NCBI RefSeq assembly: GCF_000341395.1
Contig: NC_020304.1
Coordinates: 1,680,001-1,712,000, forward strand
DNA: 32,000 nt
Direction of reading: 5' to 3'
DNA from: Desulfocapsa sulfexigens DSM 10523
Lineage (GTDB): Bacteria > Desulfobacterota > Desulfobulbia > Desulfobulbales > Desulfocapsaceae
The translations under genes were made by a program, and so were the position numbers. The first letter of the stretch is position 1. Each line of letters starts with the position of its first letter. A model generated the notes under the pieces. That model saw only the letters and a list, made by a program, of their open reading frames with translations, was not told where the DNA came from and did not search any database. Shown here one piece after another: positions 1,368-29,524 of this stretch.

Positions 1368-3512
1368 ATGTTGCGAAAATTTCTACCACAAAGTGTTAAA
1401 TTCAGGCTGCTAGGGTTAATAGGGGTTTCATTCTGTCTCCTGATTGGTGCCACAGTCTTTCTGACGGCAATGGAACGGAAAAAGACATTTCTGCAGGCAG
1501 AGGAGTTACGACTTGAGGCCAGGTATAGCGGGGTGCAAAAGGCATTTGAGGATGAGGCAACCTCTGCAACGGCTATGGCTCTTGTGGTTGCTGCCATGCC
1601 TGATGTTCAGGAGGCATTTTCTTCCCGTAATCGGGAAGAATTGACAGCATTGACTCTTCCTTTTTTTAACAGTCAAAAGGAACGGCTCTCACTGGCGCAG
1701 TTCCAGTTTCACCTTCCACCCGCAACTTCCTTTCTGAGACTTCATAAACCAGAGAAATTTGACGATGATCTTTCTTCTATTCGTCAAACGGTGGTTGAAG
1801 TAAACAGAACCAAAAAGCCAATTTCAGGGATTGAAAAAGGTGTTGCCGGCCTTGGAATAAGGGGAGTGGTTCCTGTAGCAATGAACGGGAGCCATATAGG
1901 CTCCGTGGAGTTTGGCATAAAACTCAATGATGCTCTGCTTATGCCCCTGAAGGAGACCTTGGGGGTTGATATATCAGTGGTTGTCCCCGAGGGGCAGGGG
2001 TTTAAATATCTGGCTAAAACGCACTCTCTGGACATTCCTCAAAAGAGTTTTCCCTGGCTCAGTAAGATGATGAAGGCCGAGGACCTTCAGTTTAAGCAGG
2101 TTCATAAAAATGGCAAAGATTTGATGACCGTTTATGGCCCCCTCAAAGATTACAGTGGGGAAACCATAGGCGTGCTTGCCATTCCAGCAGATATTACTAA
2201 GACCATGGCAGCCATCAGGATGAACGTGTACAAGATGGTTGGTGGTGGCATTGCTGTTCTTCTTGTCACCATGCTTGCAATATATCTGCTGATGAACTCT
2301 CTTATTGTTAATCCGCTAAAGGAGCTGGTTGGAAAATTTCAACTGGCAGGAATGGGTGACCTTACCGTTGATGTTGAGAGTAAAAGGCTCTGTTCGGTCA
2401 ATTGTTCGGAAGAAATGGAATGCGGGAATCCGGAGTGTTCAAGTTATGGGAAGGTTACTAACTGCTGGGAGCAGAGTGGCTCTTTTTCATCGAAGGTGGA
2501 GTGCCCAAAAATTTTAAAGGGAGAGTATAAGAGTTGCCGTGAATGTCGTCTGTATAAAGAAAATGTAATGGATGAGTTTGCAGAGCTTGCTACTACTTTT
2601 AATTCATTTTTGCACAATGTCCGCCGTATGGTCATTGATATTCAGGGAAGTGTTGAGGATACTACAAACGCCTCAGCCGAATTGTCAGCACTCTCGGACG
2701 GTATGCAGAAAGGCGCAGTAGCGGCATCGGAACGGACTAATACCGTTGCCGCTGCAGCTGAAGAGATGAGCGCAAATATGAACTCCGTTGCTGCTGCCAG
2801 TGAAGAGGCCTCTACCAATGTGAACATGGTCGCCACTGCCACGGAAGAGATGACAGCAACTATTTCTGAAATTGCAAAAAACACCGATGAAGCCAGTTCG
2901 ATCGCTACAAAGGCTGTGGCTCAGGCAGCATCTGCCTCTGGAAAAGTTGACGTCCTTGGTGATGCAGCCATTGAGATCAGCAAGGTGACGGAGGTGATTT
3001 CTGATATTTCTGCTCAGACTAATCTTCTGGCATTGAATGCTACCATAGAAGCGGCAAGAGCTGGAGAGGCCGGTAAGGGCTTTGCAGTTGTTGCAAATGA
3101 GATTAAAGAGCTTGCTCGTCAGACCTCAGATGCTACTCAGAAAATCAAACAGCAAATTGAAGGAATACAGAGTTCTACCAATGAGACTGTAACTGAAATA
3201 CGTGATATTACGGATATCATCCATCAGGTTAATGCTATTGTTGGTACAATAGCTACAGCCATTGATGAACAGGCCGCCACCACCGCTGAGATTGGCAGCA
3301 ATGTGCAGCAGGCAGCTCTGGGTATTTCCGAGGTCAATGAAAATGTTGCCCATACATCAACCGTGGCAGGAGAAGTCGCAGGAGATATTAACCGGATAAG
3401 TGCTGTTACAGAAGAGATTATAACCAGTTCCGAGAGGGTCAACGGCAGTGCTGATGCCCTGTCCAAGCTTGCTGGAAAACTTGGAGAGATGATACGTCGT
3501 TTTAAAGTGTAA
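1368..3512 (+). CDS. Methyl-accepting chemotaxis protein: N-terminal TM, Cache-like periplasmic domain, TM, HAMP, Cys-rich insert, MCP signalling domain
   Basis: Highly conserved MCP hairpin region ([37 protein letters not shown]). A/S/T/E-rich methylation helices. Two TM segments flank a roughly 260-aa extracytoplasmic domain with a Cache-like motif ([25 protein letters not shown]...[17 protein letters not shown]). Confidence 0.95.
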
Positions 3513-3593: not shown

Positions 3594-4697
3594 ATGAAGA
3601 AAAAACATCTTGTTCTGGCTGGTGCCGGTCATGCCCATATGGTAACCATGGCTGGCATTGCAGATTTCAGAAGCCTTGGTCATGAAGTGACGGTTGTCGG
3701 TCCATCGGATCATCATTACTATTCAGGGATGGGGCCAGGAATGCTTGGTAGCGGCTATGACCCCGAGGAAATCCGTTTTGCCGTGAGGCGTACTGTTGAA
3801 AGTCAGGGCGGAACCTTTATCCGGGATACGGTAACGGGGGTTGCCCCGGGCAGGCGTGAGTTGCATCTGGAGTCAGGCCAGGTTGTTTCCTATGATGTGC
3901 TTTCCTTTAATACCGGTAGTCATGTGGACATGCCGGATATTCGAGGAAATGCAAACCGAATATTCACCGTTAAACCCATTGAACGCCTGTACCAGGCTCG
4001 GACAGAGATTTTATCTCTGTCGCAACGGCAGGATGTGACCGTTGCTGTAATTGGTGGTGGGCCGGCGGGTGCTGAGGTGGCTGGGAACGTAGCGGAGCTT
4101 CTTGAGAAGACCGATTATCCTGCAAAGGTGTTTTTGTTTGCCGGACGTGGTCTGCTTGCAAAATTTCCTGCGGCTGTGCGCAGCACCAGTCGTGGGATCC
4201 TTACTAAATATGGAGTGGTTATCAGGGAGGAGGGGCATCTGCTGTCTATTACCGATAATCTTCTGCAGTTTGATTCAGGATCGACTGAGCTCGCCGATTT
4301 TGTCATTCTGGCAACTGGGGTACATCCTTCTCCTTTTTTTCGGAAGGCGGGCCTCCGCACAGGAGAAGACGGAGGGCTACTGGTGAACAAATATTTGCAA
4401 TGTCCCGATTATCCAGAAATTTTTGGTGGCGGGGATTGCATCTGGTTTGAGGATCAACCTCTTGCCAAAGTGGGTGTCTATGCGGTACGTGAAAATCCCG
4501 TACTCTTTCACAACCTGAAGGCATTCCTTCAGGGAGATGCACTACAGTCCTTTGATCCCGGTGGGGATTATCTTCTAATTTTTAACCTCGGTCATGGTCA
4601 GGGTGTTTTGCGTAAAAAGTGGTTTCAGATATCGGGGAAAGTTGCGTTCTGGGTTAAAGATTGGATAGACAGGAAATTTATGCGCACTTTTCAGTAA
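3594..4697 (+). CDS. FAD/NAD(P)-dependent pyridine nucleotide-disulfide oxidoreductase family protein (NDH-2/SQR-like fold)
   Basis: N-terminal Rossmann motif HLVLAGAGHAH, second dinucleotide motif VAVIGGGPAGAEVAG, and C-terminal FAD motif IFGGGDC. Confidence 0.85.
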   Translation: MKKKHLVLAGAGHAHMVTMAGIADFRSLGHEVTVVGPSDHHYYSGMGPGMLGSGYDPEEIRFAVRRTVESQGGTFIRDTVTGVAPGRRELHLESGQVVSYDVLSFNTGSHVDMPDIRGNANRIFTVKPIERLYQARTEILSLSQRQDVTVAVIGGGPAGAEVAGNVAELLEKTDYPAKVFLFAGRGLLAKFPAAVRSTSRGILTKYGVVIREEGHLLSITDNLLQFDSGSTELADFVILATGVHPSPFFRKAGLRTGEDGGLLVNKYLQCPDYPEIFGGGDCIWFEDQPLAKVGVYAVRENPVLFHNLKAFLQGDALQSFDPGGDYLLIFNLGHGQGVLRKKWFQISGKVAFWVKDWIDRKFMRTFQ

Positions 4698-4744
4698 GAA
4701 CAGGACGTTGTGGGCTTAGTAAGAAAAAAAGAGGGAGAGTTGAA

Positions 4745-5083
4745 ATGAAGGTTGACTGGCTGTATTTCCGTAAAGGTTGAACATCGTGCACTAAAGCCCA
4801 GGGGGCCCTTGAGCTGGCAGATGTGGAGATAGGTGAAATTGCTGATGCGCGAAAAAATGTGATTAAGGCTGATGCTGCCTGGGATATTATAAAGAATATT
4901 AAAACGTTGCATGTTGGAAAGGGTAAGAAAAATGTCGTTTTTGCTCCCGATGCGGATTTCAGAGATGAAATACTGAAGGTTACTCTTGGTCGTACAGGAA
5001 ACCTGAGAGCACCTGCCTTACGTATCGGAAAACGTATGTATGTTGGCTATAATGATACAATGTATGAGGAGTTGATCGGATGA
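4745..5083 (+). CDS. ArsC/Spx-family redox protein, predicted selenoprotein (in-frame TGA 4778-4780; U-T-S-C motif)
   Basis: ATG 4745 with SD GAGGGAGAG (4731-4739). It reads MKVDWLYFRKG-TGA-TSCTKAQGALE..., in the same frame as and contiguous with track ORF 4823..5083. The TGA sits where the first Cys of the Spx-type CxxC lies. The stop overlaps the next start (ATGA at 5080-5083). Confidence 0.8.
4796..4818 (+). promoter_or_regulatory. Candidate SECIS hairpin for the TGA at 4778
   Basis: GC(C)CAG / CTGGC stem with one bulged C and a 12-nt G-rich loop GGGGCCCTTGAG, starting 16 nt after the TGA. Confidence 0.4.
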
Positions 5084-5892
5084 ATTGGAAAAATCTGTTT
5101 GTCTCAGGGGCGAATATGAGCCCCGATGAAGTGAAGAACTTTATGGCTGAGCACAAGCCAGGGGACTACCAACTGCTCGATGTTCGGCAACCCAAGGAGT
5201 ATGAAAAGGAACATATCCCGGGAGCGCTTCTTATTCCTATAAAAGAGCTGAGAGAGCGTATAGGTGAGTTGGATCCAACGAAACCAACCTTTGTCTACTG
5301 ACATTCCGGAGTACGCAGCAAGGCTGCTGCGCAGTTATTACTGGCCGAGAATTTGCCTCATATTTACAATATGAGTGGCGGTATTATTGCCTATAATGGT
5401 GGGAAAGCTGTTGGTGATGAGGCCTTTGGCATGGAGTTTTTTGTCAGTGGGGAATTCAGCGATGTTTTTCGAATGAGTTACGCCATGGAAGAGGGGCTGC
5501 GGCAACTCTATTTGACCTTGAAGGATCTCTGCGAGGACAAAGAGGTCAAGGACCTTCTCGCCAGGTTGGCGCGGTTTGAAGAAGGGCACAAGGCAAAGTT
5601 AAAAGCCCTCTTTCCTGAGGTGGACGAAAAGGGTGGTGAGAACGACTTGAATACTCTTGAGGGGGGGTACAATAAACAGCAGCTACTCGATCATTTCAAA
5701 TCACGGGTTGTTGCCCAAAATGATGTTATTCAGCTTGGTATGATGCTTGAAACCCAGGCCTATGATTTGTACAGTCGTCTGGCCAAGAAAGCTGAAAATC
5801 CTGAGTCCAAAGAGTTCTTCGAGTTTATGGTTGGTGAGGAAAAACAGCATCTTGTTTTTCTCAGTAATGAGTATGATAAAGTCCTGGGCTAA
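5080..5892 (+). CDS. Rhodanese-domain protein with predicted selenocysteine in the active-site loop (TGA 5299-5301), fused to a C-terminal ferritin/rubrerythrin-like diiron domain
   Basis: Track ORFs 5080..5301 and 5353..5892 are in the same frame and separated only by TGA. Read-through gives ...KPTFVY-U-HSGVRSKAAAQLL..., which is the rhodanese C-x-x-G-x-R-S loop with U at the Cys position. The C-terminal half carries E / ExxH / E / ExxH (AMEEG, FEEGH, MLETQ, GEEKQH). Confidence 0.85.
5314..5331 (+). promoter_or_regulatory. Candidate SECIS hairpin for the TGA at 5299
   Basis: Perfect 7-bp stem CGCAGCA / TGCTGCG with loop AGGC, starting 13 nt after the TGA. Confidence 0.6.
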
Positions 5893-5900
5893 AACCATTT

Positions 5901-5925
5901 ATGCCCGACAGTCTCTGTCGGGCAT
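5901..5925 (+). terminator. Stem-loop ending the oxidoreductase/selenoprotein operon
   Basis: Perfect 11-bp stem ATGCCCGACAG tct CTGTCGGGCAT, 9 nt after the stop. There is no clean T-run, so terminator efficiency is uncertain. Confidence 0.55.
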
Positions 5926-6118
5926 TCAAAAATCCAGCTCAGTTATTACGTTCCACTGTTGTTCCCTCCGTAGTTTTCATTCTAATAGCTAAAACTAAAT
6001 AAATGCGATTGAGTTCAGGGGGAGCCTGTCCGGTTCTGTGTCAGTATCCCCAGGTTTCTGTGGTATATCTCTCCCTGTTGCCGGGAATATATTTGGTGGG
6101 CGAGCGATTAAAAAAGTC

Positions 6119-6162
6119 TTGACCTGCTAAGGATTACTACTTACAGTTAGAAATTATTATCG
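6119..6162 (+). promoter_or_regulatory. Sigma70-like promoter with an overlapping Fur-family-type AT-rich box upstream of the Fur/PerR-like gene
   Basis: TTGACC (6119-6124), a 17-nt spacer, then TACAGT (6142-6147). This is followed immediately by TAGAAATTATTATCG, whose reverse complement cGATAATAATTtct resembles a Fur/PerR half-box. Confidence 0.45.
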
Positions 6163-6174
6163 TAAGGAGGGGAT

Positions 6175-6828
6175 ATGCAATTACGAATGACAAACCAGCG
6201 CGAGATGATCCTTCGGGAACTCAAGAAAAGCAAAAAACATCTAACGGCTGATGAGCTATACGAGCGGGTGAAAAAATTTATGCCGCGTATCAGCCTGGCA
6301 ACGGTATACAGGAATCTTGAGATCCTGTCCGATGCTGCAATGATCCGTAAACTTGAGATCAGTGGGCGGCAGAAACGCTTTGACAGTGAACTTGAAGATC
6401 ATGACCACATTTACTGTATCCAGTGTCATCGAATAGAGAATCTGGATATTGGGGAAAATGAGGTGACCCTGGGTGCTGTTGACACAAAGGGCTATGAAAT
6501 CACCGGACGTCGTTTGGAGGTGATTGGTTTGTGTCCCAAGTGTCAGGAAAAACAAACAAAAACAAATATAAAAGCTAAGAAAGGAGAGACTACAATGGCG
6601 TGCGGGTGTAAAAAAGGTGAGTTGAGTGGTGAACAGAAACAGGTCCTTGAGGCAATGGCTAATTGTGAGGGGCCCTGTGCTTCAAAAGATATTGCAACAG
6701 CAACTGGTCTTGAGACTAAACAGGTAAGTTGTCGGATCACAGCGCTCAAGAAAAAAGGATATGTGGACAGTCCGGTACGCTGTAAGTATGGGATTACCAG
6801 TGAAGGCAGGGCTGCCCTTAAGGGTTGA
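6175..6828 (+). CDS. Fur-family (PerR-like by context) metalloregulator with an in-frame 77-aa Cys-rich winged-helix C-terminal extension
   Basis: Residues 1-127 form a complete Fur-family protein (HTH, HDH, CIQC, CPKC). The frame stays open into MACGCKKGELSGEQKQVLEAMANCEGPCASKDIATATGLETKQVSCRITALKKKGYVDSPVRCKYGITSEGRAALKG. That segment has its own SD (AAGGAGAG 6580-6587) and ATG (6595). Confidence 0.85.
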   Translation: MQLRMTNQREMILRELKKSKKHLTADELYERVKKFMPRISLATVYRNLEILSDAAMIRKLEISGRQKRFDSELEDHDHIYCIQCHRIENLDIGENEVTLGAVDTKGYEITGRRLEVIGLCPKCQEKQTKTNIKAKKGETTMACGCKKGELSGEQKQVLEAMANCEGPCASKDIATATGLETKQVSCRITALKKKGYVDSPVRCKYGITSEGRAALKG

Positions 6829-6848
6829 TACGTATTTTAAGGTGTAGC

Positions 6849-7424
6849 ATGAGCAGTTTGAAAGGCAGTAAAACAGAAAAAAACATTCTTGTGGCTTTTG
6901 CCGGGGAATCGCAGGCAAGGAACAGATATTCGTATTATGCCAAGGTGGCTAAAAATGAGGGATATGTTCAGATTTCTGGGATTTTTAGTCGTACCGCAGA
7001 GCAGGAGCGGGCACATGCGAAAACCCTTTTGAAATTTCTTGAAGGCGGTGAGGTTGAAATTACAGCATCCTATCCTGTGACGCCTCCAGGTACTACAGTA
7101 GAGAATCTCCAGAATGCTGCCTCAGGAGAAGAACATGAATATAAAGCCATGTATCCCGAGTTTGCTGCGATTGCAGAAGAGGAAGGTTTTCCTCATGTGG
7201 CTGCAGCCATGCGTTCCATAGCTGTAGCTGAAAAAGAGCACGCAAGGGTTTATCGACGCCTTATTTCAAACATTAAGGCGGGTGCAGTGTTTGAGAGGGA
7301 TGTGGAGGTAACCTGGTATTGCGCAAAATGCGGTTTTGTCCATAGGGGGCTGAAGGCGCCGAAAAAATGTCCTGCCTGTGCCCATTCCCAGGCTTATTTT
7401 GAGATTCTGGTAGATAATATATAA
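6849..7424 (+). CDS. rbr: Rubrerythrin (diiron four-helix bundle plus C-terminal rubredoxin-like FeCys4 domain)
   Basis: N-terminus LKGSKTEKNILVAFAGESQARNRYSYYA, ExxH motifs (EQERAH, AEKEHA), and C-terminal CAKCG...CPAC. ATG 6849 follows AAGGTG. Confidence 0.95.
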   Translation: MSSLKGSKTEKNILVAFAGESQARNRYSYYAKVAKNEGYVQISGIFSRTAEQERAHAKTLLKFLEGGEVEITASYPVTPPGTTVENLQNAASGEEHEYKAMYPEFAAIAEEEGFPHVAAAMRSIAVAEKEHARVYRRLISNIKAGAVFERDVEVTWYCAKCGFVHRGLKAPKKCPACAHSQAYFEILVDNI

Positions 7425-7565
7425 GCCTTGTGGAAAGCCTCTTTATTTTTTTTGAAATGTCCCGACAGGGGATTTTCGTCCCACAAAGGGGTATTGAAAA
7501 AAAGTACCGGCTCTCTACGTTGCCGGTGTAAGTAGATTACTAATTAATAAAACTGTTGGAGATAT

Positions 7566-8162
7566 ATGATGAAACCTTTGGTAACCAATGAAGCCCCTGA
7601 CTTTACTGCGACTGCGGTTATGCCCGACAACACCTTTAACGAAGCGTTCAAACTGTCCGATATGCGGGGTAGATATGTACTGCTGTTTTTTTATCCCCTG
7701 GATTTTACCTTTGTTTGTCCGTCCGAAATTCTCGCTTTCAACTCTGCCGTGGAGCAGTTTAAGGAGAAGAATTGTGAAGTAGTCGGGGTTTCCGTTGATT
7801 CGCATTTCAGCCATCTTGCCTGGAAGAATACGCCAATCAACCAGGGTGGTATCGGTAATATTCAGTTTCCTCTGGTTGCTGATCTGGATAAATCTATTTC
7901 TGAAAATTATGGTATTCTCTTTGGTGGCACCATTGCCCTTCGTGGTCTCTATCTGATTGACAAAGAAGGAATTATTCGTCATCAGGTTGTCAATGATCTT
8001 CCCCTTGGCAGAAGTGTTTCCGAGGCCATGCGTATGCTTGATGCAATTCAGTTCGTTGAAGAGCATGGTGATGTCTGTCCTGCTAACTGGAGTAAGGGGG
8101 ATGATGCCATGGTTCCGACGGCAGAGGGTGTTGCTAAATATTTAACCGATCATATTGCGTAG
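7566..8162 (+). CDS. ahpC: Typical 2-Cys peroxiredoxin (AhpC/Prx1 type)
   Basis: Peroxidatic motif DFTFVCPSE and resolving VCPANW. SD GGAG at 7557-7560. Confidence 0.95.
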   Translation: MMKPLVTNEAPDFTATAVMPDNTFNEAFKLSDMRGRYVLLFFYPLDFTFVCPSEILAFNSAVEQFKEKNCEVVGVSVDSHFSHLAWKNTPINQGGIGNIQFPLVADLDKSISENYGILFGGTIALRGLYLIDKEGIIRHQVVNDLPLGRSVSEAMRMLDAIQFVEEHGDVCPANWSKGDDAMVPTAEGVAKYLTDHIA

Positions 8163-8303
8163 GGTTTTGTTTGGTTGGGTGTTTTTAGATAGATGCAGGA
8201 AGTGCTGGAAAAGCGGTGTTTGAAGCAGTAGACTTGTTTTTGACGGTGTGGGTTCTTTCTCTTTGGATAGAACTGTAACTTTTATCAAAATGGAGGCAGT
8301 ACT

Positions 8304-8678
8304 ATGGCTAAAAAATTAGGTGTATATAAGTGCAATATCTGTGGGAATGTGGCTGAAGTTGTCCACGCTGGAGCAGGGGATATGAGTTGTTGCGGTGCTC
8401 CCATGGAGCTACTCAGTGAAAACAGTGTGGATGCTGCTCAGGAAAAGCATGTTCCTGTGGTTGAGAAAGTTGCGGGTGGTTTTAAGGTAACCGTTGGAAG
8501 TGTTGATCATCCCATGACTGAGGATCATTATATTGAATGGATAGAACTTATTGCCGGTGATTCCTGCTATAGGCAGTTTCTGAATCCTGGTGATGCTCCA
8601 CGGGCTACCTTTCAGGTGGCTGCTGACAGTGCGGTGGCACGAGCTCACTGCAATCTGCACGGTCTCTGGAAGGCATAA
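8304..8678 (+). CDS. dfx: Desulfoferrodoxin (2Fe superoxide reductase)
   Basis: N-terminal desulforedoxin module [13 protein letters not shown]...[11 protein letters not shown] centre II ligands (KHVP, HPM, C..HGLW). SD GGAGG at 8292-8296. Confidence 0.95.
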
Positions 8679-8715
8679 AGATAACCCTATAGAAAAAAAT
8701 TTCAGGAACAGGTCG

Positions 8716-9132
8716 ATGTCGTTGCCAGAAGAGATGTATCAGTGTCAAATGGTGAACTGTGGTTACATTTACGATCCGGATAAGGGGGATCGTAAGAGTA
8801 AAATTAAAAAAGGTACGCAGTTTAAAGACCTTCCTGAAGGATGGAGATGCCCTGTTTGTGGGGCAACTGTAAAAGCGTTTAAACCACTGGCAGGACCCGG
8901 TTCAGTGCATGCCGAAAATGCATCTGCAGCTCCTGCCAAGACTGAAACTGAAATAAAAGGAACAGCGAGTGATATGAAAAAGTATAGATGCGATGTTTGT
9001 GGATATATCTACGACCCGGATGTGGGAGATGATGCTGCAGGGATTCCTGCAGGGACATCCTTTGATGACCTGCCCGATGATTATGAGTGTCCTGTCTGCG
9101 GAGCAGGGAAGGACGAATTCAGCGAAGTGTAG
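8716..9132 (+). CDS. Tandem (two-domain) rubredoxin
   Basis: Two rubredoxin modules: [13 protein letters not shown]...WRCPVCG and [11 protein letters not shown]...YECPVCG, joined by an A/P/T/E linker. The start could alternatively be ATG 8734. The track start 8590 overlaps dfx and is rejected. Confidence 0.9.
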
Positions 9133-9144
9133 GAATTTATTTAC

Positions 9145-9175
9145 AGGGGCCTCCATCATGGTGGCCCCTTTTTTA
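9145..9175 (+). terminator. Rho-independent terminator after the rubredoxin gene
   Basis: AGGGGCC ... GGCCCCT stem (11-nt loop) followed by TTTTT. Confidence 0.8.
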
Positions 9176-9260
9176 CAACGCTTGTAGTTTGCCTGGTTGT
9201 TGATGGCAGGCTTGAGTGTCTTCTTACGTCCTTGATTTTTCTTGAAAAATAGGTGTATAT

Positions 9261-9608
9261 ATGAAAAAGATTCTCCTTGTGGCCTTTCAGGGGCAGCCCA
9301 TGTGTTTTATTCATGTTTTGCTCAATGGACTTGAGTTGAAAACAGCTGGGCACGAATGTAAGATTATAATAGAAGGTGAGGCCACTACCTTGATCCCTGA
9401 AATAATAAAAGAATCGCATTTTCTTCACGGACTCTACAATCAAGTGAAGGAAGCGGGGTTGATTGAAGGCGTCTGTAAAGCATGTTCTATGAAAATGCAG
9501 GTCTTTGAACAAATAGAAAAAACAGGCCTTCCCTTGCTTGATGACATGTCTGGTCATCCTGGGATGGTGAAATATATTGAAAAGGGCTTTGAAATAGTAA
9601 ATTTCTGA
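9261..9608 (+). CDS. Small DsrE/YchN-like fold protein (function unknown; Cys-containing)
   Basis: 115 aa. It starts MKKILLVAFQGQPMCFIHVLLNG..., which is typical of small DsrE-like alpha/beta proteins, and has a CKAC pair. SD AGGTG lies 6 nt upstream. It sits 27 nt upstream of roo. Confidence 0.6.
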   Translation: MKKILLVAFQGQPMCFIHVLLNGLELKTAGHECKIIIEGEATTLIPEIIKESHFLHGLYNQVKEAGLIEGVCKACSMKMQVFEQIEKTGLPLLDDMSGHPGMVKYIEKGFEIVNF

Positions 9609-9635
9609 TTTTAAATTTTTAAGGAGGACAGGGAT

Positions 9636-10835
9636 ATGAATCCGGTTAAACTTATCGAAAATGTTTATTGGGTCGGTGCTGTGGACTGGGACGTTCGTGA
9701 TTTTCACGGATATTCTACTAACAGAGGTACCACGTATAATGCATTTTTAATTATGGATGAGAAGATTACTCTCATCGATACCGTAAAAAAATCGTGTAAA
9801 AACGACATGCTTGCCAGGATTAAGGAAATAGTTGATCCTGAAAAGATTGATTACATCGTAGTTAATCACGTGGAAATGGATCATTCCGGAAGTCTTCCAG
9901 ACATGGTCGAACTCATTAAGCCTGAAAAAATCATCTGTTCAAAGATGGGTGAGAAGGCGTTGGTGCAACATTTTCATCATGAAGACTGGCCCTATCAGAT
10001 TGCAAAGCCTGGCGAAGACGTGAGTCTTGGAGAAAAAACACTTTCTTTCCTCGAAACACGGATGCTGCACTGGCCCGATTCCATGTTTACCTATCTTGTA
10101 GAAGACCAGATACTTTTCTCTTCTGATGCCTTTGGTGAGCACCTTGGTACCAGTGAGCGTTTTGATGATGAAGTGGATCAGGCAATTCTTCTGGAAGAGC
10201 TTACAAAATATTATGCCAATATCCTGACCCTCTATTCACCACTGGTAAAGAAGTTGATTGCCAAGGTGAAGGAAATGAATTTACCAATCAAGATGATTGC
10301 TCCGGATCATGGTGTTATATGGCGTAAAAATCCAAACATGGCGATTGAAGCCTACGATAAGTGGAGCCAGGGAAGAGGTGATGGTAATGCCCTTGTGGTT
10401 TATGATACCATGTGGCATTCCACAGAAGAAATGGCCAAACGTGTCGGAGCAGGATTGCAGGATGAAGGTATTTCCTACCAGCTTGTTAATCTGCGTTATA
10501 ATCATCGCAGTGATGTTATGCGTGATGTGCTGAATGCCAGTGCTATTATTCTTGGCTGTCCTACATTGAATAATGGTTTGCTGCCTCGAATGGCTGGATT
10601 CCTGATGTATATGCGTGGATTACGTCCTCTTAATAAAGTTGGTGCTGCTTTTGGCTCTTTTGGCTGGTCAGGTGAGTCTGTAAAGTTACTCAACGAAGCT
10701 ATGACGGATATGAAATTTGATATTGTAGATGATGGACTGAAGGTGAAGTACGTCCCTGAAGATGCTGATTATCAGCAGTGTGTTGAACTTGGCCGGAAAG
10801 TGGGCCAGGCAATTAAGGCAAAACAGGCAGAATAG
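9636..10835 (+). CDS. roo: Flavodiiron protein (rubredoxin:oxygen oxidoreductase / FprA type): metallo-beta-lactamase-like diiron domain plus flavodoxin domain
   Basis: Diiron motif NHVEMDHSG, C-terminal flavodoxin-like domain (ALVVYDTMWHSTEEMA...), SD AAGGAGG. Confidence 0.95.
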   Translation: MNPVKLIENVYWVGAVDWDVRDFHGYSTNRGTTYNAFLIMDEKITLIDTVKKSCKNDMLARIKEIVDPEKIDYIVVNHVEMDHSGSLPDMVELIKPEKIICSKMGEKALVQHFHHEDWPYQIAKPGEDVSLGEKTLSFLETRMLHWPDSMFTYLVEDQILFSSDAFGEHLGTSERFDDEVDQAILLEELTKYYANILTLYSPLVKKLIAKVKEMNLPIKMIAPDHGVIWRKNPNMAIEAYDKWSQGRGDGNALVVYDTMWHSTEEMAKRVGAGLQDEGISYQLVNLRYNHRSDVMRDVLNASAIILGCPTLNNGLLPRMAGFLMYMRGLRPLNKVGAAFGSFGWSGESVKLLNEAMTDMKFDIVDDGLKVKYVPEDADYQQCVELGRKVGQAIKAKQAE

Positions 10836-26080: not shown

Positions 26081-27076
26081 TTAACTGGCCTGTTCCAGAG
26101 CGACAGCAACAGCAACCGATGCTCCAACCATGGGATTGTTTCCCATACCGATAAGGCCCATCATTTCAACATGTGCGGGTACCGAGGAAGATCCGGCAAA
26201 CTGGGCATCGGAATGCATGCGTCCCATGGTGTCTGTCATTCCGTAGGATGCAGGGCCAGCTGCCATGTTGTCAGGATGAAGAGTACGTCCCGTTCCGCCA
26301 CCTGATGCAACAGAAAAATATTTTTTTCCACTAATATTGCATTCCTTTTTGTAGGTTCCTGCAACGGGATGCTGAAAACGGGTAGGGTTGGTAGAGTTTC
26401 CAGTAATGGAGACATCGACTCCTTCCAGATGATTGATGGCAACACCTTCACGGACATCATCTGCACCATAGCAGCGAACCTCTCCACGAGGGCCTTCGGA
26501 AAAACGTTTTTCCTTTATGACTTTCAGCTGCGAGGTGGCATAATCAAACCGTGTCTCCACACTGGTGAAGCCGTTGATGCGGGAAATGATATGTGAGGCA
26601 TCCTTGCCGAGACCATTCAGGATTACACGCAGCGGTTCTTTCCGGACACGGTTTGCAGACATGGCCAGGCCGATAGCCCCTTCAGCCGCGGCAAAAGACT
26701 CATGTCCAGCAATAAAGGCAAAGCATTTTGTCTCTTCACGCAGGAGCATGGAGGCAAGATTTCCGTGCCCTATACCTACCTGACGATGATCCGCAACGGA
26801 TCCCGGGATGCAGAAAGCCTGAAGTCCAATACCAAGAGTTGCGGCAATATCAACGGCCTTTGTCTCCCCTTTTTTGATGGCAATGGCAGCACCAACGGTA
26901 TATGCCCAGCAGGCATTTTCAAAGCAGATGGGCTGGATGTCTTTTACAATACGGGCAACATCAACACCATATGCATCACATACTTCCTTGGCCTCTTCAA
27001 GGCTTTTTATTCCATACTCTTCAAGAACAGGGATGATCTGATCGATCCGCCTTTCATAACTTTCAAATAATGCCAT
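26081..27076 (-). CDS. GGGtGRT-family protein (conserved, function unknown)
   Basis: About 331 aa. The namesake motif SGGGTGRTLHPDNMAAGPASYGMTD lies near the C-terminus. ATG 27076 has SD AAGGAG. The track start 27181 overlaps the upstream gene and is rejected. Confidence 0.85.
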   Translation of the reverse strand: MALFESYERRIDQIIPVLEEYGIKSLEEAKEVCDAYGVDVARIVKDIQPICFENACWAYTVGAAIAIKKGETKAVDIAATLGIGLQAFCIPGSVADHRQVGIGHGNLASMLLREETKCFAFIAGHESFAAAEGAIGLAMSANRVRKEPLRVILNGLGKDASHIISRINGFTSVETRFDYATSQLKVIKEKRFSEGPRGEVRCYGADDVREGVAINHLEGVDVSITGNSTNPTRFQHPVAGTYKKECNISGKKYFSVASGGGTGRTLHPDNMAAGPASYGMTDTMGRMHSDAQFAGSSSVPAHVEMMGLIGMGNNPMVGASVAVAVALEQAS

Positions 27077-27086
27077 GAGATTCTCC

Positions 27087-27779
27087 TTATTCCTTACGCG
27101 GATCAATGGTTTTAACGGCTTCTGCGAAACGACCATAGGTCCCCGTCGCTTTTTCAAGGGCCTTGTTGGCGTCTTCACCATTTCTAATTGCTTCCATCAT
27201 TCGACCAAGATGGACAAATTTGTAGCCAATGATTTCATTGTCACCATCAAGGGCCAGCTCCAGAACATAGCCTTCGGTGACTTCAAGATATCGTGGGCCT
27301 TTGAGCTTTGTGCCATAGGTGCTTGCCGTAACGGAACGCAATCCTTTACCCAGGTCTTCAAGACCGGCACCAATGGGAAGACCTCCCTCAGAAAATGCGG
27401 ATTGGCTGCGGCCATAGACGATTTGCAGGAAGAGTTCGCGCATGGCAACATTGATGGCATCACAGACAAGATCAGTATTGAGTGCTTCTAGGATTGTTTT
27501 GCCGGGCAAAATCTCAGAGGCCATGGCGGCGGAATGGGTCATTCCGGTACAGCCAATGGTTTCGATGAGTGCTTCTTCGATAATGCCGTCTTTAATATTC
27601 AGGGTCAGCTTACAGGCGCCCTGATGAGGTGCACACCAGCCAACTCCGTGGGTCAGTCCACGAATGTCTTTTATTTCCTTTGCCTGTGTCCAGCCACCTT
27701 CTTGGGGGATGGGCGAGGGACCATGATTGGTTCCCTGGATTAGTGGACACATTTCTTTTACTTCAGAAGAGTATTCCAT
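27087..27779 (-). CDS. NifU-N/IscU-like Fe-S scaffold-domain protein with a C-terminal extension
   Basis: ATG 27779 has SD AAGGAG 8 nt upstream. IscU-like Cys pattern (GVGWCAPHQGAC, IGCTGMTHSAAMAS, LVCDAI). The stop lies 10 nt before the GGGtGRT start. Confidence 0.8.
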   Translation of the reverse strand: MEYSSEVKEMCPLIQGTNHGPSPIPQEGGWTQAKEIKDIRGLTHGVGWCAPHQGACKLTLNIKDGIIEEALIETIGCTGMTHSAAMASEILPGKTILEALNTDLVCDAINVAMRELFLQIVYGRSQSAFSEGGLPIGAGLEDLGKGLRSVTASTYGTKLKGPRYLEVTEGYVLELALDGDNEIIGYKFVHLGRMMEAIRNGEDANKALEKATGTYGRFAEAVKTIDPRKE

Positions 27780-28043
27780 AAGAGTCTCCTTGTGGTTGTT
27801 ATTGAAGCTGCAAGAATAAAGGATATGGGAAAAAGGAGCAAGTGGAAAGGAGCTTCCCTGGAGGAAGAGGTTGGTCGGATAGCGACAAATTTGCTGTAAT
27901 GATTCTGCAATTACATTGCAGCAGTGTTGTCGAGGTTGATAATATCTTGAATACACAAAATCTGTTGTATCACTGAAGTTACTTCTAAGAACAGTTATAT
28001 AACTCTTGTGTGATGGTCTTTCATCTGGAGCCTGACCCGGAAG

Positions 28044-28090
28044 AAACAAAGCCAAAAGGCCACCCCCCTAAGGGAGTGGCCTTGGGTCAG
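28044..28090 (-). terminator. Terminator of the ECF-linked operon (minus strand), nested stem-loops
   Basis: AAGGCCAC ... GTGGCCTT (28056-28063 / 28076-28083). On the minus strand it is followed by TTTTGGCTTTGTTTCTT. Outer 7-bp pairing CTGACCC / GGGTCAG (28032-28038 / 28084-28090). Confidence 0.75.
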
Positions 28091-28149: not shown

Positions 28150-29106
28150 TTAGCGTCCAGATCCACCATTTGATCCACCATTGCCACCACTACCGCCATT
28201 GCCCCCACCATTGCCACCGTCTGAGTTGCCTCCGCTACTGTCTCCACCTGAACCAGAGTCGCCAGCGGAGCCATTATTGCCGCCTCCATCTGACCCTCCG
28301 CTATCAGCGTTTCCGGCGTCGGTATTGCCGCCGAATGAGTTTCCTCTATTGTCCAGGGAGCCATTTCCATTCTGAATGGCGTCTGAATAGTTCTTTGCCA
28401 GCGATTCCCCAGATCCCAGGGCGCTTTGGGACATAAATGAACTGCGCAGGGATTGCATTTCCTGTACGTTGAAATCTTTATCCAAAGCCTGGTTTACAAC
28501 ATCTGTTGCAGTCTCTGACAATACACCTTGTCGCACCATATCTCGGGCAGTTAACATACATTCGGTTGCCAGATCTTCCAGTTGGCTCTGTTCCATTTCA
28601 CGTGCCCTCACCTGGAGGCGACTGACAATCTGTTCAGCATCCTCCCTGGAAAGACCAGCAGCACTCCCTGATGCAAACGCATTACCAAGCGTATCTACCA
28701 CCTCTTTTTTCTTGGATAATTGACCGGCAAGACCATATGCATGTTCGTAACGGGATCTAACCCTTTCCATTGCCTGGACAACCGATTCCGCAGGAATTCC
28801 TTTTGCTATGCCTTCGTATGCCTTGTTCATAACTGGCTCTACCGGCAGGTCATTTTTCAGGGTTTTCGCTACAATGTGCTGAGCCTTTACAATGTTACGC
28901 TCTTCAAATTGAGCCCTGATCATTGCCCGGGTCATGAGTACGCCATCATCTTTCTCCAGTCCGGCTTGAATGACGCTTTGTGTTGAAGCCTGAAGCTCAT
29001 TTGACCAGGCAGTGGGGATATCTGTAACCTCTTCTGCAGCAGAAGCTGAAACAGCCATTAAAACCAGACTCAACCAAACTAAAATAGAATAAACACCTCT
29101 TTTCAT
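28150..29106 (-). CDS. Secreted helical protein with a roughly 70-aa Gly/Ser/Asn/Asp low-complexity C-terminal tail
   Basis: ATG 29106 with SD GGAGGA. Signal peptide MKRGVYSILVWLSLVLMAVSASA. The tail is ...GNGSLDNRGNSFGGNTDAGNADSGGSDGGGNNGSAGDSGSGGDSSGGNSDGGNGGGNGGSGGNGGSNGGSGR. Confidence 0.75.
   Translation of the reverse strand: MKRGVYSILVWLSLVLMAVSASAAEEVTDIPTAWSNELQASTQSVIQAGLEKDDGVLMTRAMIRAQFEERNIVKAQHIVAKTLKNDLPVEPVMNKAYEGIAKGIPAESVVQAMERVRSRYEHAYGLAGQLSKKKEVVDTLGNAFASGSAAGLSREDAEQIVSRLQVRAREMEQSQLEDLATECMLTARDMVRQGVLSETATDVVNQALDKDFNVQEMQSLRSSFMSQSALGSGESLAKNYSDAIQNGNGSLDNRGNSFGGNTDAGNADSGGSDGGGNNGSAGDSGSGGDSSGGNSDGGNGGGNGGSGGNGGSNGGSGR
28153..28370 (-). repeat. Imperfect short tandem repeats encoding the G/S/N/D tail
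   Basis: The plus strand shows reiterated CCACCATTGCC / CCGCCATTGCC / CCTCC units. Confidence 0.7.
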
Positions 29107-29200
29107 ACCTTCCTCCAAAACACATATTGACTTTCCATGGCAGCTCGTTGCAACAAGCCTTATATCTTTACAACGTCTGACAAACGAAAAGGTTACCAGT

Positions 29201-29524
29201 CTAAGGCTGATAAAGGCAATTTTCAAAACCGAAATCATCGGTTTCCCTGAAGCGACAGTCTGGAATAAAAACAGACCCATCAATAATATAAAAATAGCTG
29301 CTCCCAGGGGTAAGTGGCTTGCTGATTTCCCATAATCCAAACAGATTCCTATGGGTGTCATGAAGTGTGTATCTGTCGATAGAAGATGCAAACTGGACAT
29401 GGGAGGAGCCAGGGTGGTGCAAGTACAAAGATACCGATTCCCGACCCTCGGTAGTGAAATGATGTCCAGCACAGCCAGTACCGAAAAACAGTAGACAACT
29501 CAAAACCATCACTTGTTTGTTCAT
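29201..29524 (-). CDS. Small exported (possibly lipo-)protein with a CBM48/AMPK-beta-like beta-sandwich domain
   Basis: Signal sequence MNKQVMVLSCLLFFGTGC. The body (VSLYLHHPGSSHVQFASSIDRYTLH...GLWEISKPLTPGSSYFYIIDGSVFIPD...DDFGFENCLY) resembles the C-domain of the anti-sigma protein next door. Confidence 0.7.
   Translation of the reverse strand: MNKQVMVLSCLLFFGTGCAGHHFTTEGRESVSLYLHHPGSSHVQFASSIDRYTLHDTHRNLFGLWEISKPLTPGSSYFYIIDGSVFIPDCRFRETDDFGFENCLYQP

Follow-up and report, generated by a model that had tools for sequence, protein, structure and literature searches.

A flavoprotein, an ArsC-like selenoprotein and a selenocysteine rhodanese/di-iron fusion in a candidate redox operon of Desulfocapsa sulfexigens

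The DNA analyzed here is a 32-kb stretch of the genome of Desulfocapsa sulfexigens DSM 10523 (hereafter the window), which at positions 3594-5925 carries a module of three genes, UWK_01494-96, all reading in the same direction and occupying 3594-5892. The first encodes a flavoprotein, which we refer to as OX and whose open reading frame (ORF; 3594-4697) begins MKKKHLVLAGAGHAHMV. The second encodes a selenoprotein of the ArsC/Spx fold with a U-x-x-C motif, U being selenocysteine (Sec), and the third, RhRbr, encodes the fusion of a Sec-containing rhodanese to a di-iron domain (Table 1). The identity of the window was established from OX, from the regulator PerR encoded downstream and from the ORF fragments under which the two recoded genes are publicly filed, all of which are exact D. 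sulfexigens records. Scans of the window for Rfam families, at the gathering thresholds, and for tRNAs returned no matches.

Table 1. Features of the three-gene module and of its downstream context in the D. sulfexigens window (aa, amino acids).
Feature	Position	Strand	Description
OX	3594..4697	+	367 aa, FAD/NAD(P)H flavoprotein, NDH-2/SQR-like fold (predicted), TIGR03169-related; AGF78054.1
Ribosome-binding site GAGGGAGAG of the ArsC-like gene	4731..4739	+	within the OX-ArsC spacer
ArsC-like selenoprotein gene	4745..5083	+	ATG at 4745, TGA read through, stop at 5081-5083, 112 aa; NF041106
In-frame TGA, Sec-12 of the ArsC-like protein	4778..4780	+	TGA in 33/33 readable RhRbr-linked copies
Candidate Sec insertion hairpin (SECIS) of the ArsC-like gene	4796..4814	+	8 pairs, G-rich loop, 18 nt past the U of UGA
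RhRbr	5080..5892	+	ATG at 5080, TGA read through, stop at 5890-5892, 270 aa
RhRbr domains	rhodanese ~5122-5394; di-iron four-helix ~5464-5871	+	from domain matches
In-frame TGA, Sec-74 of RhRbr	5299..5301	+	catalytic rhodanese-loop position (U-H-S-G-V-R-S), from aligned codons in relatives
SECIS-like hairpin of RhRbr, CGCAGC-AAGGCT-GCTGCG	5314..5331	+	15 nt past the U of UGA
11-bp perfect hairpin, 3-nt loop	5901..5925	+	8 nt past the RhRbr stop
Oxygen-defence island (context outside the operon)	6175..10835	+	perR, rubrerythrin, AhpC, desulfoferrodoxin, double rubredoxin, 115-aa orf9261, flavodiiron protein

The stop codon of the ArsC-like gene and the start codon of RhRbr overlap by 4 nt in an ATGA at 5080-5083, and the ArsC-like gene is translationally coupled to RhRbr. 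Upstream, the spacer between OX and the ArsC-like gene measures 47 nt (4698-4744) and contains no hairpin, and ribosome-binding sites of the GGAG type precede both the ArsC-like gene and RhRbr. The lone hairpin, at 5901-5925, follows the third gene and has a predicted energy of -21 kcal/mol (z = -5.0; 0/200 shuffles folded equally well). The plus strand 3' of this hairpin reads TCAAAAATCC, without a T-run, and since there is thus no U-tract we describe it as terminator-like and not as a canonical terminator. L086 and L087, which are the closest relatives, have an identical 3' hairpin, more distant relatives have different hairpins there, of which some have T-runs, and the hairpin at 5901-5925 likely represents the end of the operon. 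Based on the overlap, the hairpin-free spacer and the single hairpin after gene 3, the sequence points to one transcription unit, so that OX, the ArsC-like gene and RhRbr would form a single operon in D. sulfexigens. A preliminary description of this stretch had already reported the three co-directional genes, the 47-nt spacing, the ATGA overlap and the 11-bp stem-loop, all of which were confirmed from the sequence.

Neither recoded gene is represented in full in the public records. The record for UWK_01495 (AGF78055.1) is an 86-aa "hypothetical protein" (4823-5083) and corresponds to a fragment of the 112-aa ArsC-like selenoprotein. RhRbr is split between a 73-aa "rhodanese-like" protein (WP_052326975.1, 5080-5301) and a 179-aa "ferritin family protein" (WP_167320727.1, 5353-5892), the latter with a TTG start that lies within the rhodanese domain. 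The genome paper has no mention of selenocysteine and places UWK_01496 in a group of nine rhodanese sulfurtransferases (PMC3739170). The annotation of this reference genome is corrected here for two D. sulfexigens selenoproteins that are now filed as fragments.

To judge from codon alignments, both in-frame TGAs (4778-4780 and 5299-5301) encode Sec. For comparison we used 160 loci, of which 80 came from genomes and were anchored on OX and the other 80 came from metagenomes and were anchored on RhRbr, and tblastn alignments passed in frame through both TGAs in dozens of these loci. The catalytic codon of the rhodanese was TGA in 37 loci and TGC or TGT in 85, with both states represented among the genome loci (23 TGA, 13 TGC, 6 TGT) as well as the metagenome loci (14 TGA, 66 Cys). 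The corresponding codon of the ArsC-like gene was TGA in all 33 readable copies that are linked to RhRbr, while distant homologs have Cys at the Sec position, giving a CxxC motif (for example, RKGCISC in P0247). The Sec contexts are VY-U-HSGVRS in RhRbr and FRKG-U-TSC in the ArsC-like protein. The claim in the preliminary description that the module encodes two selenoproteins is therefore upheld, by in-frame conservation in combination with TGA/Cys codon exchange in the rhodanese and the 33/33 TGA codons in the ArsC-like gene. Its further statement that back-to-back recoded genes are rare stands in part: the pair is present, but its rarity is relative, as several selenoprotein operons are listed in a 2026 review (PMC13188914). 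The reading of both TGAs as true stops was considered and ruled out by the in-frame conservation on either side of them in dozens of loci. None of selA, selB, selC or selD was found within the 32-kb window.

Eight ArsC-like homologs (P0243, P0244, P0253, P0255, P0258, P0281, P0297, and P0346) have Trp at the Sec position (RKG-W-TSC). These entries are likely hidden Sec forms in which the TGA was called as Trp under a non-standard code.

Single-sequence folds 3' of each UGA were insignificant (z = -0.36 for the ArsC-like gene and -1.2 for RhRbr) and the case for SECIS elements consequently rests on comparative tests. In RhRbr the stem is formed by the Arg-Ser codons CGCAGC and the Ala-Ala codons GCUGCG, which pair over 6-7 bp and enclose a G-rich loop. 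Among the TGA forms of RhRbr, 91.7% of the cells were paired and 8 were compensatory, with changes between CG and AU, a level of covariation that was reached by 0/500 shuffles. The stem was perfect in 13/24 TGA forms versus 1/19 Cys forms (Mann-Whitney p = 2e-6, phylogeny-uncorrected), as would be expected of a SECIS element that decays where Cys replaces Sec. The candidate hairpin of the ArsC-like gene was paired in 84% of cells (12 sequences), with covariation no better than that of shuffles and a position that is shifted in L017 and L018. The Sec/Cys polymorphism of RhRbr, together with the matched gain and decay of its intragenic hairpin, offers a clean natural case of turnover between Sec and Cys.

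RhRbr consists of a Rhodanese domain (aa 15-105; PF00581, 70 bits against a cut-off of 22.2) and a Rubrerythrin-family domain (aa 129-264; PF02915, 51.8 against a threshold of 22.8). Its catalytic loop, U/C-H-S-G-V-R, is of the 6-residue sulfurtransferase type, with G77, R79, and S80 invariant. Among 44 aligned sequences C/U74, R79, E137, E167xxH170, E224, and E254xxH257 were invariant, as was an EGG motif, and these residues include the complete putative di-iron ligand set, E / ExxH / E / ExxH. In the comparison with classical rubrerythrins, the ExxE motif of helix C was absent from RhRbr (A227 lies three residues past E224), as was a rubredoxin domain. The nearest solved proteins to the di-iron domain are the uncharacterized ferritin-like 2fzf and TM1526 (1vjx), along with encapsulated ferritins, and from its sequence we assign the C-terminal domain to the ferritin-like or "erythrin" (COG1633-type) proteins rather than to rubrerythrin proper. 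The closest structures to the rhodanese half fall into two groups, the first being rhodaneses fused to metallo-beta-lactamase/persulfide-dioxygenase enzymes (3tp9, the best at 38% identity, and 5ve3) and the second flavoprotein persulfide reductases (Npsr, 3nta; CoADR-RHD, 3icr; CoAPR, 8a56). A Foldseek search with the RhRbr model matched the rhodanese half only.

The ArsC-like protein scored 123 bits against NF041106, "ArsC family (seleno)protein" (cut-off 85), over positions 1-107 of 107, and by this profile match it is a member of that family. In selenoproteome catalogs NF041106 appears as "arsenate reductase-like protein, UxxC" (PMC13188914, PMC9312934). Its redox site is G-U-T-S-C, in which U12-x-x-C15 aligned, albeit weakly, with the CxxC position of Spx. 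The family is small, with about 300 representatives among 1.84 billion proteins. Three distant Cys forms (P0247, P0288, and P0313) are on short contigs, and the one neighbor that could be read encodes a Mg-chelatase-like protein and not RhRbr.

OX is a protein of the Pyr_redox_2 domain family and its best NCBIfam match by far was TIGR03169 (258.2 bits, E = 1.4e-76, collinear over 2-365 of 365), followed by TIGR04369 at 134 bits, with all remaining families at 53 bits or less. The curated cut-off of TIGR03169 is 310 bits; in terms of profile scores, this is the nearest family of OX, which falls short of membership by the curated threshold. Sequence motifs of OX are GAGHAH (aa 10-15), HYYSGMGPGML (aa 41-51), GGGPAG (aa 154-159), and GGGDC282. 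Conserved across 91 OX homologs were GxGHAH, HYYSGMGPGML, an NDH-2-like GGGPxxxE NAD(P)H motif, GGGDC and a C-terminal helix. The sole conserved Cys is C282, which is invariant (91/91), and neither a redox-active Cys pair or CxxC nor a conserved N-terminal Cys was present in these sequences. In Foldseek searches the AlphaFold2 model of OX (pLDDT 86, pTM 0.84) matched NDH-2 structures with TM-scores of 0.80-0.84 (4nwz, 5na1, and YjlD), SQR at 0.80 and ferredoxin/rubredoxin reductases at about 0.71. Since the model has the NDH-2 fold and the sequence both dinucleotide-binding motifs (GAGHAH and GGGPAGAE), OX is predicted to be a flavoprotein of the NDH-2/SQR fold with an NDH-2-like second dinucleotide motif. 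At the sequence level its identity to solved proteins, including SQR and NDH-2, was about 20% (phmmer E ~1e-17) and OX did not cluster firmly with either, an outcome that would have spoken against the module as first described. There was no NDH-2 model among the NCBIfam matches, the SQR_III_seleno model scored 35 bits against a cut-off of 525, and CoADR models, which have cut-offs of 394-579, gave no more than 53 bits.

These properties of OX and RhRbr bear on a possible role in the oxidation of sulfide or persulfide, in which an SQR-like OX would pass electrons from a protein-bound (per)sulfide to quinone and RhRbr would replace PRF, with its di-iron site consuming O2 in the oxidation of sulfane sulfur. 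The structural match of the OX model to SQR is in line with this, as are its C-terminal helix, which resembles those of membrane-peripheral NDH-2 and SQR, and the fact that iron-enzyme/rhodanese fusions (3tp9 and BpPRF, 5ve3) provide the best structures for the rhodanese domain. The SQR-PRF gene pair is also a parallel to a flavoprotein gene beside a gene for a rhodanese/non-haem-iron fusion. However, SQR needs a pair of Cys residues where OX conserves one and the SQR_III_seleno score is far below its cut-off, while the complete NDH-2-type NAD(P)H motif is kept in OX. In addition, the hosts are sulfide-producing strict anaerobes, and we know of no oxygenase activity for COG1633-type di-iron domains. 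We consider this role unlikely.

The commonest neighbor of OX was RhRbr (41/78 loci), followed by an AhpC cluster (12), and the three genes occurred in four arrangements. Arrangement A, OX>ArsC(U)>RhRbr as in the window, was found in genomes at 10 loci of the Desulfocapsa type and in metagenomes at 12; in the metagenome locus L094 OX>RhRbr is present and the ArsC-like gene was not detected. Arrangement B, a tight ArsC(U)>RhRbr pair with no OX nearby, is that of other Desulfobulbaceae and was seen at a minimum of six loci (L081, L083, L089, L090, L099, and L105); for L081 and L083, OX is found at a distance of about 110 kb, on the contig that also holds L015. The ArsC-like gene was directly upstream of RhRbr, with an overlap or a gap of at most 6 nt, in 24/80 of the RhRbr-anchored metagenome loci and in L081 and L083. 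Arrangement C, in which RhRbr>OX is not accompanied by an adjacent ArsC-like gene, was found at 33 loci of the Desulfobacterales/Syntrophales type, including L036, in which RhRbr is preceded at about 2 kb by a TGA-bearing ArsC-like gene. Four arrangement-C loci (L029, L042, L049, and L076) have an adjacent AhpC gene and genes for a DedA/MerA-like reductase and rubrerythrin are downstream in several. Rubredoxin is encoded immediately upstream of RhRbr in L057, L060, L074, L075, and L079 and one gene further up in L021. Arrangement D, with neither partner, comprises about 55 RhRbr loci, which have Cys forms with the loop CA[VI]GGRS. Of the 37 RhRbr loci that have neither partner and span 4 kb or more, 14 carried either a flavodiiron protein (FDP) or a homolog of the orf9261 product of the oxygen-defence island. 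In L131 and L148 the order is FDP>orf>RhRbr>RhRbr followed by a desulfoferrodoxin (Dfx) gene on the opposite strand, and the same FDP-RhRbr-RhRbr run, with no Dfx call, occurs in L127 and L133.

Because gene order differs by lineage (OX>ArsC>RhRbr versus RhRbr>OX), the linkage of OX to RhRbr has been preserved through rearrangement. The two orders of OX and RhRbr, along with the linkage of the ArsC-like gene to RhRbr both with and without OX, argue that each partner is genuinely coupled to RhRbr in function. Synteny among the three families is thus conserved in the 160 loci, although it is hub-like and not linear: judged from gene neighborhoods, RhRbr is the hub and is accompanied, depending on the lineage, by subsets of the ArsC-like protein, OX, rubredoxin, FDP, Dfx, and AhpC. 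This pattern is difficult to reconcile with the proposition that the three genes are mere neighbors with independent functions and no common pathway. Many OX and RhRbr genes do stand alone and the region upstream of OX is unconserved, as would be expected of such neighbors, but the adjacency is held in two gene orders across orders of Desulfobacterota, and in D. sulfexigens the 4-nt overlap, the hairpin-free spacer and the lone hairpin after gene 3 also speak against chance proximity, which we consider very unlikely indeed.

Several other features of these loci were recorded. Paired RhRbr paralogs, either divergent or in tandem, are present in L021, L028, L031, L049, and L059 as well as in L122, L127, L133, L144, L148, and L163, and in some of the genomes with such pairs one RhRbr is beside OX and another on the opposite strand. 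In six loci of the Desulfobacula/Desulfamplus type (L021, L032, L056, L057, L075, and L079) OX is followed by a gene for a 714-aa fusion of DedA/TVP38 to a class-I (CxxxxC) pyridine nucleotide-disulfide oxidoreductase, which in several of them is followed in turn by rubrerythrin. Genes for a SagB-type nitroreductase, thioredoxin-2 and MntP recur nearby in the wider Desulfobacterales-type set.

The recurring company of the RhRbr and OX loci consists of rubredoxin, FDP, Dfx, AhpC, rubrerythrin (Rbr), and PerR, and in D. sulfexigens and its relatives the perR-rbr-ahpC-dfx-rd-fdp island is directly downstream of the module. No recurrent selD, dsr, apr, or sat was found among the neighbors. Such neighborhoods have a bearing on whether the module is a catabolic set for the disproportionation of sulfur or thiosulfate, with the rhodanese mobilizing sulfur from S0 or thiosulfate for Dsr/Apr. 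D. sulfexigens is a specialist disproportionator, which would suit this function, but the module is equally common in sulfate reducers of the Desulfobacterales (Desulfosarcina, Desulfobacula, and Desulfatitalea) and in the 160 loci it was never beside dsr, apr, sat, or phs genes. Likewise, in a survey from 2026 no rhodanese could be identified as a marker of disproportionation (PMC12998232). An enzyme set for sulfur disproportionation, to which we would assign a decidedly low probability, was rejected on the grounds of taxonomic distribution and neighbors.

The explanation that we prefer is that the module is an uncharacterized cytoplasmic, NAD(P)H-fed redox system for defence against O2, peroxide or sulfane sulfur in anaerobic Desulfobacterota, and we would give it an even chance of being correct. 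In such a system the rhodanese Sec or Cys of RhRbr would carry or attack sulfane-sulfur or oxidized chalcogen species, and the U-x-x-C protein would serve as a dedicated dithiol-type (selenol/thiol) partner that resolves the resulting selenosulfide or persulfide, much like the thioredoxin-type acceptor of rhodaneses. OX would oxidize NAD(P)H, with the electrons passing to the module directly or via rubredoxin, probably to the di-iron site. We infer that the physiological place of the module is in oxygen, peroxide and reactive-sulfur defence and not in the supply of selenium to SelD.

The preliminary description had favored a linear relay, from NAD(P)H to OX to the ArsC-like protein to RhRbr, that was tied to selenium handling (for example, selenide to SelD), and had offered oxygen, peroxide or persulfide defence as its alternative. 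The grounds for the relay were the resemblance of OX to the family found N-terminal to SelD, and TIGR03169 did prove to be the best OX family, with TIGR04369, an oxidoreductase/SelD-related fusion, second. The OX>ArsC>RhRbr order with translational coupling is maintained in the Desulfocapsa clade, and a rhodanese is able to carry selenium in the form of a perselenide. Further, Ndh-SelD fusions are common and have a function that is unexplained (PMC2398784, PMC4561486). Nevertheless, the OX score of 258 is below the cut-off of 310 and SelD is neither fused to OX, nor encoded in the window, nor among the recurrent neighbors of the 80 OX loci, and as a consequence the tie of OX to selenium is one of family resemblance alone. 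The chain from OX through the ArsC-like protein to RhRbr is not obligatory either, because pairs persist without the third gene, as in the 33 RhRbr>OX loci that have no adjacent ArsC-like gene and the six or more ArsC>RhRbr loci that have no OX. Most RhRbr are Cys forms in oxygen-defence clusters, and OX has neither the CxxC nor the redox-active Cys pair with which thioredoxin-fold proteins are reduced. Overall, the linear path gives way to a hub, a selenium-supply role of the module is unsupported, and the relay as a whole seems to us quite unlikely, with the defence alternative providing a better fit to the neighborhoods.

An additional possibility is that the module acts as a split, selenium-boosted chalcogen reductase, in which C282 of OX, which adjoins the FAD GD motif, would be joined in trans to the Sec or Cys of a carrier by a transient bond (S-Se or S-S) that OX would reduce with NAD(P)H, while the di-iron site would couple the reaction to O2 or H2O2. 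Either RhRbr, through its rhodanese loop, or the ArsC-like protein, through its U-x-x-C, could be the carrier. We regard this mechanism as improbable; if true, it would be the first mechanistic account of the Ndh-SelD fusions, as a reduction of selenosulfide or perselenide at the CxxC loop of SelD.

Several observations weigh against the defence module that we prefer. Its substrate and the direction of its electrons are features that we only infer. Since no partner lies within 5-10 kb in some 37 OX loci and some 55 RhRbr loci, the pairing of OX and RhRbr is facultative. Peroxidase chemistry should not be assumed for RhRbr because its di-iron domain is not a classical rubrerythrin, and an hhalign comparison of this domain with the Rbr encoded in the window gave a probability of 4%. 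The AlphaFold2 model of RhRbr leaves the packing of its two domains undefined (pTM 0.58, linker pLDDT <50), and, given the NDH-2-like fold and amphipathic C-terminal helix in the model of OX, its acceptor may be a quinone and not a protein. With respect to regulation, the region upstream of OX is unconserved among relatives and phylogenetic footprinting found no conserved block in it. A search of this region for the D. psychrophila PerR box and for the conserved perR-promoter motif found no site, which is a weak negative, and no operator shared between it and the perR promoter was found.

The perR gene itself starts 280 nt downstream of the operon and is preceded by its own promoter-like site (6110-6174). 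As this promoter region is near-invariant, the operon and the PerR island look like separate units. The region, TTGACYTGC-AAGGATTAYTACTTACAGTT-GAAATTATTATCG-AAGGAGG, is almost identical in 16 relatives, and it shares a 9-mer, TGTAAGTAG, with the region upstream of ahpC (7520-7540), where it is inverted. The counts of this 9-mer over the whole window are at chance level, as were the overall counts in the search with the D. psychrophila consensus. We view it as a candidate PerR operator that is unlike the published D. psychrophila box. The PerR-type regulator (6175-6828) has 217 aa, a length that is the same in relatives, with a Fur/PerR domain at aa 1-126. Its additional C-terminal part is a Cys-containing, winged-helix-like domain with weak matches to MarR_2, TrmB, and Mrr_N, and an architecture of two DNA-binding domains is unusual for a PerR. 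Further into the island, the double-rubredoxin ORF (8590-9132, 180 aa) overlaps the desulfoferrodoxin gene (8304-8678) by about 90 nt; the product in relatives has 135 aa and the true start probably lies 3' of the listed one. A Cys-containing protein of 115 aa that belongs to no Pfam or NCBIfam family is encoded by orf9261 (9261-9608), which is situated between the rubredoxin and flavodiiron protein genes. In nine distant metagenome loci (L126, L135, L138, L140, L141, L142, L147, L150, and L159) a homolog with 44-49% identity precedes RhRbr by about 1 kb, and the hub may have a fourth partner in this protein.

Directly upstream of the module, positions 1368-3512 encode a methyl-accepting chemotaxis protein (UWK_01493) with dCache_3, HAMP, and MCP signaling domains. 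A Cys-rich insert of about 60 aa, which contains CRECRLY, is situated between the HAMP and signaling domains and could serve to sense metals or the redox state. In the relatives L001, L084, L089, and L090 a response-regulator/HD-GYP gene is present after the chemotaxis gene and before OX or the ArsC-like gene. Elsewhere in the window and unrelated to the module, positions 26081-27181 encode a protein of the GGGtGRT family (PF14057, E = 1.7e-197), the function of which is not known, beside two ORFs (27087-28055 and 28150-29472) with no family matches.

Both selenoprotein families of the module are already catalogued, while earlier descriptions of the operon, of the hub pattern and of the mis-annotation appear to be lacking. 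Among the papers covered by our literature searches none mentions a rhodanese-rubrerythrin or rhodanese-ferritin fusion, and for TIGR03169 and the UWK locus tags the searches found catalog entries and the genome note only. The operon section of the 2026 review lists grdAB, prdBC, frhA-frhD-hdrA(-glpC), Prx/SelW, Prx-like/AhpD-like, SAO, and Tso, and not the ArsC-like/RhRbr pair (PMC13188914). At the family level the ArsC-like protein is the same as other NF041106 members in its score, its N-terminal U-x-x-C and its CxxC homologs. What appears to be new for this family, on the basis of the sequences compared, is that its translational coupling to RhRbr looks obligate in Desulfobulbales and that Sec is present in every readable RhRbr-linked copy. 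The catalogued Sec-rhodaneses are similar to RhRbr in having Sec at the catalytic Cys of a C-x-x-G-x-R loop, and their entries name only PF00581.

OX resembles TIGR03169, the Ndh of the Ndh-SelD fusions (PMC2398784, PMC4561486), in its full-length collinear match, its length and the style of its motifs (GxGHAH, HYYSGM-PG). It differs in that it stands alone, scores below the cut-off and has as its recurrent partner a rhodanese-di-iron protein instead of SelD. The TIGR03169 lineage, which is of unknown function and abundant as Ndh-SelD in marine metagenomes, thereby gains a stand-alone relative with an identifiable partner, whose chemistry can be approached experimentally.

Among characterized systems, Npsr (3nta), CoADR-RHD (3icr), and CoAPR (8a56) likewise combine a pyridine-nucleotide flavoprotein with a rhodanese Cys, and their rhodanese domains superimpose with that of RhRbr at an rmsd of 1.5-1.8 Å and 30-33% identity. 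Unlike the D. sulfexigens module, however, each of these is one polypeptide, with CoA and an active-site Cys that is N-terminal, whereas OX is a separate protein of predicted NDH-2 fold with C282 near its C-terminal FAD motif, and the rhodanese of RhRbr bears a di-iron domain. BpPRF (5ve3) and 3tp9, with the adjacent SQR, share with our module a rhodanese fused to a non-haem iron domain beside the gene of an SQR/NDH-2-fold flavoprotein. Their iron domain is mononuclear and of the metallo-beta-lactamase fold, in contrast to the predicted di-iron four-helix domain of RhRbr, and OX, in its strict-anaerobe hosts, is without the Cys pair of SQR. With the Rbr/NROR-rubredoxin peroxidases and the ferriperoxin that lacks rubredoxin (PMC3317640), RhRbr shares a Rubrerythrin-family di-iron domain, which in RhRbr comes without a rubredoxin domain of its own. 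RhRbr also has in common with the NROR-rubredoxin systems a flavoprotein neighbor, an oxygen-defence context and, in 6 loci, a rubredoxin that is adjacent or one gene away, but it differs from classical Rbr in the absence of the helix-C ExxE (A227) and in its negligible similarity to the Rbr of the window.

From these comparisons, the module is a selenoprotein redox operon that combines a flavoprotein, a rhodanese and an iron enzyme, and as such it is not categorically new. It does provide a testable network, widespread in Desulfobacterota, in which the RhRbr hub is joined by three kinds of partner, a U-x-x-C protein of the ArsC fold, a TIGR03169-like flavoprotein and rubredoxin/FDP. This network could be an unrecognized arm of the defence against oxidants and reactive sulfur in anaerobes of oxic-sulfidic interfaces.

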